From assembly GCA_041690135.1 (NCBI GenBank), contig JAWLHY010000005.1, positions 397,487 through 461,486 on the forward strand: DNA of 64,000 nt, written 5' to 3'. The stretch comes from Armatimonadota bacterium. Its GTDB lineage: Bacteria; Armatimonadota; SYMT01. The position numbers and the translations under genes were made by a program. Shown in pieces: positions 42,601-47,704 of this stretch (position 1 is the stretch's first letter; each line of letters opens with the position of its first letter). The notes beneath the pieces are model-generated. The model had not been told where the DNA came from. It did not search any database and was given only the letters and a program-made list of their open reading frames with translations.

Positions 42601-44530
42601 TCGAGAGCAGCGGATCCTCCTGCTGGCGCCGACGGAGCGCGATGCCGAGATCACTCGCACGATACTGTCCGGCGCCGGCCTCTCCTGTCGGGTATGTCGC
42701 AGCTTGGCGGAGCTCTGCCGGGAATTGCGGGAGGGAGCCGCCGCCGCTCTGGTTACTGAGGAGGCGGTGAGTTCACCGTCTATCGGACTACTCCACGCTT
42801 TCCTGGATCAGCAGCCTCCCTGGTCGGACCTCCCGGTCATTGTGCTCACCCACGGCGGCGCCAGCTCACCCGGCGCGGAGCTGGTGCTGGAAGTACTCCC
42901 GACGGCAACCCTCCTGGAGCGCCCGGTCCGGGTGGCGACCATTGTGAGCGCCGCTCGTACGGCCCTTCGTGCGCGCCGCCGCCAGTACCAGATCCGGGAG
43001 CACCTCCGGGAGCGAGAGCGGACGGAAGCCGCGCTCGTGGCGAGTGAAGAGCGCCTTCGCCGGGCGCTCAGCGCCGCTCGGATGGTGGCCTGGGAATGGG
43101 ACTTGCGGACCGGCGTCTGGAACCCTTCGGAGATGGCCGCGGAACTGTTCGGGCGTGGTGCCGTCGATACCGATGACTTGCTCACTCTCGTCCATCCCGA
43201 AGACCGGCAGACTGTTCTTTTTGCCCGCGAGCAATGCATCCAGCGCAATGAACCCTTTGACCTCGAGTTTCGCATGGTGGTGGGCTCCAGGACCTTCTGG
43301 GTCGCCGCGCAAGCTTCTCTGGAGCGCGATGAGAACGGAGGGCCCTTGAGCCTGGTCGGGATGTGTTCCGACATCACGGCACGGAAAGTCGCCGAGGAAC
43401 TGCTGCGCGAGAGCGACCGCCGGAAGGATGAGTTCCTCGCGATGTTGGCCCACGAGTTGCGGAACCCGCTGGCGCCCATTGTGAATGCGGTCCAGCTCAT
43501 GCGGATGGATTCGGACGGGACACGCGGAGAGCGGAGCCGCGAGATTATCGAGCGACAAGTGCGCCATATGGCCCGCCTGATCGATGATTTGCTGGACCTG
43601 TCCCGGATCTCCACCGGGAAGGTAACGCTGCGCAAACAACGGGTGGACCTGGCGCAAGTCGTCAGGAGCGCCGTCGACACGGTTCGCCCCTTCTTGGACG
43701 AGTGCCGGCACGAATTGACGGTGCAACTCCCGGAGCAGGCCCTGGAAGTCGACGCCGATCCGGCGCGCCTGGAACAGATCCTTAGCAACCTGCTCAATAA
43801 CGCCGGCAAGTACACCGAGCCGGGAGGGCGGATCTCCGTTAGCCTTCAGGCCGAGAACGGTGAGGCGGTGATCCGGGTGCAGGACAACGGTATCGGCATT
43901 GGGCCAGAGCTGCTGCCTCACGTGTTCGATCTCTTCCGGCAGGGTGCGCGGGGCCTCGACCGCTCGCAGGGAGGGCTCGGCATCGGCCTGACACTGGTGC
44001 GCAACCTGGTGGCGCTCCACGGTGGGCGCGCCGAAGTCCACAGTGAGGGGCCGGGTAAGGGAAGTAAGTTCACCCTCCGCCTACCGCTCGGCCCCGCGCC
44101 CGCCCCTGCGATTCAGCGTCCGCCCGCAGCCGCGGACACCGTGAGTGCTCCGTCCCGCGCTCCCGGAGAGCCTGGCGCCCGGCGCCTGCTCGTGGTGGAT
44201 GATAACCGCGATGCCGCGGAGAGTATGGCCGACCTGGCCGCACAGTGGGGCTACGAGGTGCAAAGCGCCTACGATGGCACGGAAGCGCTTCGGATCGCCC
44301 GCTCCTTCCACCCTTCCACCGTGTTTCTCGACATCGGAATGCCCGGGATGGACGGTTATGCGGTGGCGCGAGAACTGCGGCAAATGCCCGAGCTGCAGGG
44401 TACCCTGTTGGTGGCGATGACGGGCTATGGACAGGAGGAAGATGTACGGCGTTCCCGTGAGGCCGGGTTCGATCACCACCTCGTGAAACCCATCGACTTC
44501 GCCGACCTCACCACCCTCCTCAGCCGTTAG
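42587..44530 (+). CDS. Hybrid histidine kinase (REC-like, PAS, HisKA, HATPase, REC)
   Basis: AHELRNPL, NLLNNAGKY, GGLGIGL, C-terminal VVDDN...LDIGMP...HLVKP; start overlaps the KaiC-like gene stop. Confidence 0.92.
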   Translation: MIEIDREQRILLLAPTERDAEITRTILSGAGLSCRVCRSLAELCRELREGAAAALVTEEAVSSPSIGLLHAFLDQQPPWSDLPVIVLTHGGASSPGAELVLEVLPTATLLERPVRVATIVSAARTALRARRRQYQIREHLRERERTEAALVASEERLRRALSAARMVAWEWDLRTGVWNPSEMAAELFGRGAVDTDDLLTLVHPEDRQTVLFAREQCIQRNEPFDLEFRMVVGSRTFWVAAQASLERDENGGPLSLVGMCSDITARKVAEELLRESDRRKDEFLAMLAHELRNPLAPIVNAVQLMRMDSDGTRGERSREIIERQVRHMARLIDDLLDLSRISTGKVTLRKQRVDLAQVVRSAVDTVRPFLDECRHELTVQLPEQALEVDADPARLEQILSNLLNNAGKYTEPGGRISVSLQAENGEAVIRVQDNGIGIGPELLPHVFDLFRQGARGLDRSQGGLGIGLTLVRNLVALHGGRAEVHSEGPGKGSKFTLRLPLGPAPAPAIQRPPAAADTVSAPSRAPGEPGARRLLVVDDNRDAAESMADLAAQWGYEVQSAYDGTEALRIARSFHPSTVFLDIGMPGMDGYAVARELRQMPELQGTLLVAMTGYGQEEDVRRSREAGFDHHLVKPIDFADLTTLLSR

Positions 44531-44773
44531 AGAGCCGGCACACCGCGCTTTCGCGTGTCCTTCCCTTCACACTCAGGGAGCTCTTTTCGGTAGGAGCCGG
44601 TTTGGATGCCCCGGAGGGCGGCCGGAGAACAGGCGCCCGTATGCGGGCAGGAGGTTGCGAGCCCCCGGACCTGTTCAGGCAGCCGCCGCTTTGGTAGCCC
44701 CGACGCATGCGTCGGGTACCCACGAAGTGGGTGATGGGAAGGGGCGGCAAGACAACGGGCGCCCGCACAGAAA

Positions 44774-44861
44774 AGCCCTGGAGGGGCGGCAGGAGAATAG
44801 CCGGGGGTGTAAGCCCCCGGACTTGGCGCCCGCACAGAAAGAGCCCCGGAGGGGCGACAGA
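44774..44861. repeat. REP-like palindromic intergenic element, copy 1
   Basis: agccctggaggggcggca...tagccggggg-tgtaag-cccccggac...agccccggaggggcgacaga; 88 nt, matches 51792-51879. Confidence 0.8.
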
Positions 44862-44938
44862 ACAACACGCCATTGAGGAGAATTGTACCGCCCTCTCTCC
44901 CGCGCCCCCCTCATTCCCTTTCCGCTCTTCCGTCCCCT

Positions 44939-44969
44939 TTCCGCGTCATTCCGCGTATTCCGCGTGCAA
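44939..44969 (-). repeat. Short intergenic repeat with 9-10-nt periodicity (CGCGGAA units)
   Basis: Minus strand ttgcacgcggaatacgcggaatgacgcggaa; near-copy of 19481-19511. Confidence 0.65.
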
Positions 44970-44979
44970 CGTTGTCCCT

Positions 44980-46557
44980 TCACTTAGGCTCCATGGGCTC
45001 GGTGGGAAACTGGTTCCGCCAGGCGTCCAGGCCGCCTTCCAAGGCGTAGGCGTCGAAGCCCATCTCCTGCAGGTGTCGCGCCACCCGGGCGCTCGTCGTT
45101 TCGTGCGGTCAGGTGCAGTAGGCGACCACCGGCCTTTTGCGCGGCAGGCCCACGGCCCATTCCACCAGACCGTCCGGATGGACGTGCACGCTCCCCGGGA
45201 TCCGGTCGCCCCGGTAAGTGGAGCGGCTGCGGACATCCAGCACCAGCGGGGGATCGGGGGATCGGAGCCTGTCTTCCAACTCCTCCACGCTGATCCGGAG
45301 TGCGTCCTCCTTGCCTTCTCCGAAGAGGCCGTAGGCCGTGGTCTCGCGTTCTTCGGGGAGCGTTAACGCTTCGGCCCGCGCGGCATACCATTGGGAGAGC
45401 GGCGTGGCGCTGATCCCGTGCAGAATTACCGAAACGATCACCACGAGGCCCGTGATCGCCATGAGCCGCTCGGCGGCCGGCAGGTGCGCCTGCACCACCA
45501 GCAGGGCGAGAAGCAGTGAGTTGAGGCCTCGGGGGCCGAACCAGCCGATGAAGGCGCGGGCACTCCGGCTAAGGGAGGCGCGCTGCAGCACCAATCCCAT
45601 GGCCAGGGGCCGGACCAGCAGCAGCGCCAGGAGAGCCAGCGCGAGGGTGGGCCACCATGGCACGGCGCTCAGCATCGTCGAGAGAGCGGCGCCGAACAGG
45701 ACGAAGGCCAGCAGCATCGCCATCTCGACCGTCGTCTCGCCGTATTCCAGGAAACAATCGCAGAGCTCCAGGTCCAGCACCACCACCGCTAGCCCCGCGG
45801 CGAAGGCCGCCAGGAATCCGTCGCCTCCCACGGCTACGGCGGCCGCGTAAGCGACCAGCACCAATCCCACTCCGAACAGCGCCTGGTGCTCGCGCCGGAT
45901 CCCCATCCGCGCGTCGATCTTCACCATCATCCACGCGCCGGCGCCGCCCACGATAAAGCCGACGACCGGCCCCAGCACGAACACCTGCGCGAGGAAGGTC
46001 ATCCAGTCCGAAGCGCCCCCCAGGCGTCCGCGAGCCAGCGCGATCAGCACCAGCACGATGGGGAGCACCACCAGATCGTTCGTGCCGGCTTCGATGCTCA
46101 GGGTGTCCCGCACGGGCCGGGGGATCTTCGGGTTCCGCACCACGTCCCGCAGGACCACCGGGTCTGTCGAGGCGAGGATGGCGCCCAGCAGCAGCGAGTG
46201 GATGAGATTCGTGCCGAGCAGCGCCCAGGCGGCCGCGGCAACCCCGGAGATAGTGAGCAGCGTGCCGGGCCCGAGCACCAGCATCGGTACGAACCACCCC
46301 TTGCGGAACTCCGCCGGCTGGATCTTGATCGCGTCGAGGAAGAGGACGAAGACCAGGCTGACGATGGCGACCGCTTCCAGGAGTGGGTCGTGCATGGTCA
46401 CGCGCACGAAGCCCAGCCCGCGCTCCCCGAGCACGAATCCCAGGCCGAGGAAGAGGATGGGGAACGATAGCGGCGCCCGCTCCACCAGCCCCGAGGCGAG
46501 TGCGGAAACGGTGAGGACCACGCCGATCAGGGCGAACAGAGATAGCAGGTCGGGCAT
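44980..46557 (-). CDS. CPA1/NhaP-type cation:proton antiporter fused to a rhodanese domain, with an in-frame UGA (probable selenocysteine) at 45109-45111
   Basis: LASTDPV, EAGTND and GWFGPRGL antiporter motifs; rhodanese VLDVRS...RIPGS...VVAYCT-UGA-PHETTSARVARHLQEMGFDAYALEGGLDAW...EPK-stop at 44980. Confidence 0.85.
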
Positions 46558-46759
46558 CGGGCTGCGGCTTCTCCCACGGGAAGGCGTCCGCACGGCCCAT
46601 CCAGTGGGGACCGGGAGCGGGACTCCCTACAAGCTAGTGTAGCTCAATGCGCCGTCCTGGTTAGTACCCCCTCAAAGATCCCCTCCGGTTCGGGCAGACA
46701 CGCGAGCCCATCCGGCTCCCGAGGGCGACGCCTTGTTGTCGGCGTAATTGAAAGACTTA

Positions 46760-46782
46760 TTTAGTAAAATTGATTTACGAAA
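46760..46782. promoter_or_regulatory. Candidate ROK-family operator
   Basis: Imperfect palindrome TTTAGTAAA-attga-TTTACGAAA in an AT-rich patch upstream of a locus ending in a ROK regulator. Confidence 0.5.
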
Positions 46783-46951
46783 AAGAAGGAGTCGTTCGGC
46801 AGTTGGCGAATATCCCCAGTGAAGCCTCCCGTGTGCCGCCGAAGAGAGGGATGATTGTTGTGCCAGCCACCGGGAGATGGGGTCATTTACTTAAAGGTGA
46901 TCCGGTAAATGCGTCCGGCTGGGAGGACCCAGCCGGACCAGGAGAACGACG

Positions 46952-47704
46952 ATGCTACGACGAAAGGGCTTCACACTCATCGAATTGCTTGTGGTGATAG
47001 CGATTATCGCGATTCTGGCTGCGATCCTCTTCCCGGTCTTCGCGCAGGCCCGCGAGAAGGCCCGGCAGGCATCTTGCTTGAACAACCTAAAGCAGATGGG
47101 CACGGGTCTCCTGATGTACTCGCAGGATTACGATGAGGAGTTGCCGCCCGCGTGGATCGGCTACCCGTCCGTCCCCTTCCCGGGCTACGCGCGGTGGATG
47201 GATGTTGTACAACCCTACGTCAAGAACACGCAGATCTTCAGTTGCCCCAGCAGTACGGCCAAGTATGTGCCGGTTCCCAACGGAGGGACCGTGTCGAGTG
47301 TGGTGAGCAACAACGGGGGCTATGCCATGAACGTCACCTACTACGACAACAGTGACGCCGCCCACCCGCCTACCCCCGTGCCGGACGTGCCGGGCGAGTT
47401 TCCCAAGAGCCTGGCCCAACTCGCGGACCCGGCGGGTACGGCGTACGTCTTCGACTTTTTCAATGGTTGGGGCTCGTTCCAGTGCGTGTGGCCGCGCATC
47501 GCCGGCCAGCCGGCGATCATCAACAACGTTAAGCCGCGGACCCTGGGGAACGGCGGCTGGCTGCGGGAGTGGCACCAGGACAAGATCGACGTTCTGTTCT
47601 GTGACGGGCACGTCAAGGCCACCTCGCTGGACTGGCTGTGTGAGAAGGCGCCGTCCGGCGACACCGCGGGGGCCTATCGCCATTTCACCATTGAAGAAGA
47701 CTGA
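46952..47704 (+). CDS. Prepilin-type N-terminal cleavage/methylation protein (DUF1559, H-X9-DG)
   Basis: [42 protein letters not shown]-terminal [15 protein letters not shown]. Confidence 0.92.

Follow-up and report, generated by a model that had tools for sequence, protein, structure and literature searches.

The window analysed here is a stretch of 64,000 nucleotides (nt) from an Armatimonadota bacterium (assembly GCA_041690135.1, contig JAWLHY010000005.1, forward-strand positions 397,487 to 461,486). Between window positions 44980 and 46557 its minus strand carries a gene predicted to encode a CPA1/NhaP-type antiporter fused to a selenocysteine (Sec)-containing rhodanese domain. The corresponding open reading frame (ORF), 45109..46593 on the minus strand, has the C-terminal end ...RKRPVVAYCT and is followed by a TGA at 45111-45109. 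The likely start codon is the ATG at 46557-46555 (minus strand), and the equivalent Met is the start of the full-length homologs of 524-555 residues. When the TGA at 45111-45109 is taken as a residue, the frame 46557..44980 yields 525 residues, and the next TGA, at 44982-44980, is terminal. The read-through tail beyond the in-frame TGA, PHETTSARVARHLQEMGFDAYALEGGLDAWRNQFPTEPMEPK, adds 42 residues, and Pfam finds a complete Rhodanese domain only if the TGA is translated. A first-pass annotation of the window had reported an ORF that ends at YCT-TGA (45109-45111), a rhodanese fold completed by reading through, and a hairpin at 45078-45092, 16 nt past the UGA; all of these coordinates proved correct, and the 42 residues it had quoted are the ones given above. 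The features of the gene are as follows.

44980..46557, minus strand: complete predicted selenoprotein gene, 525 codons plus the terminal TGA (44980-44982), from its translation and from homologs that start at the equivalent Met.
45391..46506, minus strand: CPA1/NhaP-type antiporter membrane domain, residues 18-389 (PF00999, E 6.4e-44).
46162-46167, minus strand: T131-D132, within the antiporter domain.
46075-46080, minus strand: N160-D161, within the antiporter domain, alongside E156, R316 and R343.
45754..45762, minus strand: C266-D-C268 (LCDCF) motif opening the tenth predicted helix, invariant in 23/23 and 120/120 members.
45298..45366, minus strand: predicted cytoplasmic linker, residues ~398-420, with E402-E403-R404 (EER) invariant in both protein alignments.
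45013..45291, minus strand: Rhodanese domain, residues 423-515, split by the UGA in standard annotation (PF00581, E 1.5e-13; PDB entries 6mxv and GlpE 1gmx).
45115..45117, minus strand: codon of the invariant Cys481, the C of CxU (Cys in 56/56 Sec and 20/20 Cys loci).
45109..45111, minus strand: UGA predicted to encode Sec483, at the catalytic-Cys position of the active-site loop (TGA in 60/80 and TGY in 20/80 loci; GlpE alignment).
45078..45092, minus strand: hairpin resembling a selenocysteine insertion sequence (SECIS), stem GCGCC/GGCGC (5 bp) and loop CGGGU, starting 16 nt after the UGA, from comparative pairing.

One indication that the TGA is recoded comes from its homologs. A protein search scored 8000 candidates and returned 4077 matches at E <= 0.001. 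Among the best 120 of these 4077, 63 homologs of 475-489 residues have YC[TSA] as their very last residues, and the remaining 57, of 524-555 residues, run on as YCxC[PA]. When the DNA of genomes representing individual species was scanned, tblastn confirmed 190 loci, and 80 of these were retained. The codon at the Sec site is TGA in 60 of the 80 and TGC or TGT in 20. Fifty-five of the TGA loci and all 20 of the TGC/TGT loci were recovered by a motif search, and the five additional TGA loci were read outside the motif (YCTUL, WCTUP, YCTUQ, YCTUS and FCAUP). The downstream frame is open in every TGA locus and encodes a conserved UPxE(A/E)(T/S)SAR...GGxxAW sequence. The pairing of Cys and UGA that the first-pass annotation had suggested looking for is thus present across the 80 loci, at exactly the codon in question.

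Public records of 484-486 residues (P0046, P0072, P0101, P0121 and others) are named 'cation:proton antiporter', and public annotation ends these genes at the Sec codon. A divergent member of 415 residues from the representative library (P0145), known as a single protein sequence, reads YCATPREATSRR and has Thr at the Sec/Cys position.

By label, carriers of the gene belong to the Chloroflexota (Chloroflexia, Anaerolineae, Dehalococcoidia and Ktedonobacterales) and Thermomicrobia, and further to the Rubrobacteraceae, other Actinomycetota, the Thermoanaerobaculia/Acidobacteriota and the lineage of the window itself. One of them, Thermalbibacter longus (L034), is a cultured isolate. Distribution within the phylum of the window is patchy: among the 41 genomes searched, the gene occurs in the source genome (G000) and in one member of the same family (G005, TGA form) only. 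The G005 copy is split across two contig ends (C9:116-1075 and C76:18156-18776; L008 and L009), an arrangement that suggests a break in the assembly rather than a disrupted gene.

A predicted stem-loop follows the in-frame TGA. According to a published account, a bacterial SECIS is a stem-loop located right after the UGA, with a small apical loop that contains a G (PMC1088965). The hairpin in the window has this arrangement: it begins 16 nt past the UGA, and its small apical loop, with the family consensus CG(U/G)G(C/U), has G at the second position. The case for the element rests on comparison because a 5-bp GC stem is cheap in GC-rich DNA. We aligned the window with 55 TGA loci in a gap-free alignment of 78 columns (A2). 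The helix columns 26-30/36-40 contain standard pairs in 280 of 280 cells (56 sequences), and when the 3' arm was slid by 1-3 columns as a control, pairing dropped to 20-66%. RNAalifold independently predicts the identical helix. Pair 27-39 shows a double change from C-G to U-A in two loci (L030 and L035), and a third case of this change (AGT...GCA) occurs in L009, a relative of the window; G-U or U-G pairs occupy nine cells of the helix. The covariation score was reached by 2 of 500 shuffles.

Third positions of the codons that form the hairpin behave differently in the two classes of gene.

Third-position entropy, codons +6 to +10, 56 Sec genes: 0.30, 0.00, 0.91, 0.00 and 0.22 bits.
Third-position entropy, codons +6 to +10, 20 Cys genes: 1.14, 1.96, 1.90, 1.84 and 1.44 bits.

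Flanking four-fold degenerate codons have values of ~1.1-1.9 bits in the Sec and Cys sets alike, with two-fold and Trp codons lower. The Ser codon at +6 is AGY in all 56 Sec genes and TCN in none of them; codon +7 is GCC in 54 of the 56 and GTC (Val) in the remaining two, leaving C as the third base in every case. Synonymous sites of the hairpin are therefore frozen in the TGA genes and not in the Cys genes, which argues that an RNA element is under selection in the former and not in the latter. We regard this synonymous-site conservation as a stronger argument for the predicted element than covariation. The suggestion in the first-pass annotation that the hairpin, with a G in its loop, is a bacterial SECIS accords well with complete pairing in 56 sequences and with synonymous freezing limited to the TGA genes.

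The source genome of 9.1 Mb encodes the machinery for Sec incorporation, one of the checks that had been proposed alongside the initial observation: selA, selB, selD and tRNA-Sec are all present. The selA gene (481 bits) is directly followed by selD (370 bits), and a tRNA-Sec with anticodon tca was located by ARAGORN ~460 nt beyond selD; selB is found on a separate contig (SelB-wing_3, 82 bits). The selA/selD/tRNA-Sec cluster occupies contig C1:1149693-1152363 (loci L001 and L005). The selD gene has one in-frame TGA of its own, and the SelD of this genome is probably a selenoprotein likewise. In a small sample of genomes picked for their long contigs, SelA (>400 bits) was detected in all five that carry the TGA form and in three of the five that carry the Cys form.

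The extended product matches PF00581 with 51.5 bits against a cut-off of 22.2, and the predicted catalytic residue starts a six-residue loop, as expected of a rhodanese. In HMMER alignments U483 takes the place of the catalytic Cys both in GlpE (CYHGNSS) and in the two domains of 6mxv, and the loop aligns without gaps. The loop has the length found in sulfurtransferase-type rhodaneses; its composition is acidic, with Pro at +1 in 56/56 and Glu at +3 in 55/56 aligned Sec genes. Cys481 is an extra residue that ends the preceding strand, and it is invariant in the 76 analysed loci and in both protein alignments. From these alignments the motif is predicted to be CxU, with Sec as the nucleophile.

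The membrane domain scores 150.8 bits against PF00999 (cut-off 26.2). When used alone as a phmmer query against the PDB it gave no match at E <= 1e-5; the family profile matches PaNhaP (4cz8/4cza, E 4.3e-11) and MjNhaP1, in an alignment that brings the TDP, ND and GPRG motifs into register. An AlphaFold2 model built from 120 sequences has a mean predicted local distance difference test (pLDDT) score of 86.1 and a predicted TM-score (pTM) of 0.84. It contains thirteen transmembrane-type helical segments, a long last helix (362-397), a linker with lower pLDDT (65-78) and an alpha/beta domain (421-520). The top Foldseek hits are PaNhaP (E 1.7e-11, TMt 0.72) and MjNhaP1, followed by SLC9C1, SOS1, NHE1 and KefC. 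The first-pass annotation had described a CxU motif attached to a CPA1 antiporter, and this architecture is recovered here as PF00999 and a complete PF00581 in one 525-residue product with an NhaP fold.

In NhaP proteins the TD of the unwound helix, the ND pair and conserved Glu and Arg residues have ion-binding roles. The window protein has all of these residues, and in both protein alignments of the family they show little or no variation. An exhaustive search of representative sequences with the membrane domain gave 443 clusters at E <= 1e-30; among 150 of the 443, T131, D132, E156, N160, D161, R316 and R343 are kept, with few substitutions, in nearly every covering protein listed, including stand-alone relatives of 390-448 residues. 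Because the NhaP fold is matched and the transport-site residues are conserved, the membrane domain looks like a working CPA1 exchanger. LCDCF is nearly universal in the fused family, and a CxC in its place occurs in only ~8 of ~75 stand-alone relatives among the matches listed. The C-terminus of NhaP proteins is inside; from this topology and the order of the helices, we infer that C266 and C268 would lie on the cytoplasmic face.

The source genome also contains a stand-alone rhodanese (contig C11:103717-104031, L090) that is 47% identical to the fused domain over 105 residues. It reads FCTUPNEATSARVA across an in-frame TGA, and at the same spacing from the TGA it has a hairpin, UCCGCC-CGGGU-GGCGGA, in which the outermost G-C pair of the fused-gene hairpin is C-G and one pair is extra. 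Since motif and hairpin are both shared with this paralog, the Sec-rhodanese module and its SECIS seem to have been joined as a unit to the CPA1 gene. A third rhodanese ORF with an in-frame TGA in the same genome (C3:593439-593735, L093) reads VVVYUNVGLKS; it is without the upstream Cys and represents a different Sec-rhodanese form.

A FastTree phylogeny of 76 proteins, computed with the Sec/Cys codon masked and rooted by midpoint only, divides the family into two halves. One half, with 29 rows (Anaerolineae/Caldilineae), contains 9 Sec forms and, nested among them, all 20 Cys forms; the other half has Sec in 47 of 47. At least five changes between Sec and Cys are needed, three of which are forced by well-supported branches. 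Together with the shared SECIS, this midpoint-rooted tree suggests an ancestral Sec that was repeatedly replaced by Cys, several times within the Anaerolineae/Caldilineae. Two loci labelled 'uncultured delta proteobacterium' (L040) and 'Bacteroidetes bacterium' (L048) fall among the Chloroflexota in the tree, and the row nearest to the window is L040. Either horizontal transfer or an artefact of binning or labelling could explain their placement.

The neighbours of the gene in the window are a convergent ORF for a putative hybrid sensor kinase and a divergent ORF for a putative prepilin-like protein, both named from reading of the sequence. Across 76 loci the largest cluster of shared neighbour genes reaches just 9/76; the neighbourhood therefore offers no operon-based clue to function. 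An Rfam scan of positions 44000-47500 (E <= 10) returned nothing over the antiporter gene at gathering score, and its sole passing match was Acido-Lenti-1 RNA (RF01687) at 44774-44820 on the minus strand (37.6 bits, gathering score 37, E 3.3e-6). This match lies ~160 nt 3' of the antiporter stop on the same strand, with a weaker, partial second copy at 44843-44864.

From these comparisons we are confident that the gene encodes a 525-residue CPA1/NhaP antiporter with a C-terminal Sec rhodanese of the CxU type, in which the first UGA would be recoded through the SECIS and the second, hairpin-free UGA would terminate translation. The best overall explanation, a selenoprotein antiporter with a Sec rhodanese domain, is in our judgement very likely. 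The more specific proposal that the rhodanese domain is a cytoplasmic sensor of redox state or sulfane sulfur that regulates ion exchange is put forward tentatively; the first-pass annotation had suggested redox- or sulfur/selenium-gated ion transport. The features that speak for regulation are the invariant EER linker, the invariant C266xC268 motif, the lack of a conserved neighbour gene and the structural neighbours KefC, SOS1 and SLC9C1.

We propose that the rhodanese domain would act as a regulatory sensor and not as a free-standing enzyme. The selenolate of Sec483 may react with oxidants or with sulfane sulfur (persulfide, polysulfide or thiosulfate), and Cys481 could then resolve the adduct to give a selenenylsulfide with Sec483. 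The EER linker and the long last helix would relay the resulting change to the antiporter, which might be gated by analogy to the ligand-binding C-terminal domains of KefC, SOS1 and SLC9C1. Under scarce selenium, translation would halt at U483 and leave an antiporter with a broken sensor domain. In its most far-reaching form, in which the CxU switch gates the exchanger, selenium supply chooses between full-length and truncated protein, Sec is ancestral and the protein is the first selenium-controlled exchanger, the scheme is possible and more likely wrong than right.

A number of observations weigh against the interpretation of this gene as a selenoprotein antiporter with a rhodanese sensor. 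The compared loci come from related species and are not independent samples. The 65-nt fold after the UGA of the window sequence has z = 0.23, with 116 of 200 shuffles equal or better, and the hairpin is missing from its minimum free energy structure. The isolated 23-mer forms the hairpin (-9.0 kcal/mol, 83% of the ensemble), and 49 of 200 shuffles match this fold; the hairpin is not significant in the single sequence. Covariation proper is thin because the 5-bp stem is nearly invariant: double changes affect one of the five stem pairs, in two of 56 aligned sequences and in L009, and 46 of 500 shuffles reached the number of double-change pairs. The acidic loop, UPxExT/S, differs from that of thiosulfate-binding rhodaneses. 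A few LCDCF proteins of 409-457 residues apparently have no rhodanese domain, and the motif is therefore not strictly tied to the fusion. The closest NCBIfam rhodanese model, NF041203, has a cut-off of 115 bits, which neither the protein (75.4 bits) nor the DNA (71.8 bits) reaches. Lastly, selenium insertion and expression of the gene are predictions from comparison, and the regulatory mechanism is a proposal drawn from conserved features.

The alternative that survives best also takes the protein to be a selenoprotein and differs in making the rhodanese catalytic: the domain would be a membrane-anchored Sec sulfurtransferase or reductase for sulfane sulfur, selenium or a metalloid, and the antiporter would be its anchor or its supplier of ions or pH. 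We consider this possible, if on balance doubtful. The placement of Sec at the catalytic position of a loop with the same, ungapped length as that of GlpE is in keeping with an enzyme, and the stand-alone paralog in the same genome has the same motif, which implies that the module works without a transporter. ChrE, a chromate-resistance protein, is the second-best NCBIfam rhodanese match (43.9 bits, cut-off 120), and most of the predicted transporter selenoproteins listed in the main text of a 2026 review have been implicated in metal or metalloid resistance (PMC13188914). These points have to be set against the absence of conserved sulfur or selenium relay partner genes near the 76 loci, the acidic loop (Glu at +3 in 55/56), which is unfavourable for thiosulfate-like anions, the invariant linker residues, which suggest coupling to the transporter, and the retention of all transport-site residues.

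It is improbable that C481, U483 and E486, possibly with C266/C268, form a soft-metal site in a metal-sensing or metal-gated exchanger. The two invariant CxC-type motifs, both on the cytoplasmic side by helix order, and the conserved acidic residue in the loop would suit such a site, and the same review, in its main text, mentions that Sec may serve as a ligand for metal in some selenoproteins associated with transporters (PMC13188914). The 76 loci nevertheless have no metal-resistance genes conserved nearby, and LCDCF is also found in proteins without the rhodanese domain.

The two readings that dispense with Sec are both very unlikely. If the TGA were a true stop, whether by nonsense mutation, in a pseudogene or through sequencing error, the 482-residue product would be an antiporter whose rhodanese is a truncated stub without function, followed by a relic reading frame; gene callers and public annotation (the 484-486-residue entries) do end there and the single-sequence fold of the hairpin is not significant, but homolog comparison contradicts a stop at 45109-45111, with TGA in 60/80 species-level loci, a conserved and open 42-codon downstream frame, synonymous freezing of the hairpin confined to TGA genes, Sec machinery in the genome and SelA in 5/5 TGA-form genomes. 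Read-through of the UGA without Sec, by genome-wide reassignment of TGA or by near-cognate insertion of Trp, Cys or Arg, would produce the full domain equally well and has nothing specific in its favour, whereas the site is Cys and not Trp or Gly in 20/20 non-TGA loci, the SelB-type hairpin is conserved, the genome encodes selA, selB, selD and tRNA-Sec, and a second TGA 43 codons further on ends the gene, which means that TGA does not generally have a sense meaning here.

Taken as a selenoprotein antiporter, the gene adds a membrane ion exchanger to the predicted prokaryotic selenoproteome, in which the transporter entries given in the main text of the review are mostly metal and sulfur systems (PMC13188914). 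The gene is also widespread, and annotation systematically records it, wrongly, as a truncated 'cation:proton antiporter'. The tiny, sequence-frozen SECIS (5 bp and a 5-nt loop), common to fused and stand-alone rhodaneses, offers a handle for finding hidden selenoproteins. Because Sec and Cys versions occur naturally and one carrier, Thermalbibacter longus, is cultured, the benefit of selenium and the redox gating of a CPA1 protein are directly testable. If the proposed mechanism is true, this would be the first ion exchanger with a control element built from selenium.

The CxU form of Sec-rhodanese is reportedly to be credited to Zhang & Gladyshev 2005. The first-pass annotation had stated that Sec-rhodaneses were already on record, and the main text of the review indeed describes five forms, of which form 3, corresponding to NF041203 (rhodanese_LYCAU), has the motif CxU (PMC13188914). 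The window protein resembles NF041203, its best rhodanese model, in the rhodanese fold, in the predicted Sec at the catalytic position and in the Cys two residues upstream (AYCTU in the window, with C at -2 in 56/56 Sec loci). CTUPxExTSARVA and the SECIS position are common to the fused domain and its stand-alone paralog from the source genome, which at 82.7 bits against 115 is likewise below the NF041203 cut-off. The known family consists of stand-alone proteins of ~126 residues, whereas here the rhodanese is the C-terminal domain of an antiporter with 13 helices. The fused protein is not a member of NF041203, and no NCBIfam model matched the whole protein at its cut-off. The first-pass annotation had known of no description of the antiporter fusion, and none turned up in the literature searched; supplementary tables could still list the family. 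None of the words antiporter, exchanger, sodium or potassium appears in the main text of the review (PMC13188914).

On the antiporter side, the closest known proteins are PaNhaP (4cz8), MjNhaP1 (4czb) and NhaP2 (PRK05326), with which the membrane domain shares PF00999, the fold (TMt 0.72) and the TD, E, ND and two Arg residues. It differs from the solved NhaP proteins in its sequence (~20% identity), its invariant LCDCF motif and its rhodanese domain. The C-terminal domain of NhaP2 is of the TrkA-C/RCK type. The NhaP2 K+/H+ equivalog models NF003714-16 (cut-offs 309-471 bits) gave at best 148.9 bits against 355. KefC (8by2), a glutathione-gated K+/H+ system, SOS1 and SLC9C1 share the general plan of a CPA membrane domain followed by a regulatory cytoplasmic C-terminal domain that responds to a small molecule or to thiol chemistry and gates exchange, but their sensor is a KTN/RCK domain or a CNBD in place of a rhodanese, they involve no selenium, and KefC belongs to CPA2. 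Other predicted transporter selenoproteins named in the main text of the review are a cation-transporting ATPase E1-E2 (UxxC), YeeE/YedE, the SO_0444 Cu/Zn efflux protein and a mercuric transport protein (PMC13188914). They have in common with the window protein a role in membrane transport and a predicted Sec in a Cys-rich motif; they differ in having other folds and motifs, with no CPA antiporter and no rhodanese domain. Judged against all of these systems, the predicted protein places a Sec module that is already known in a membrane-protein architecture that is new and widespread.

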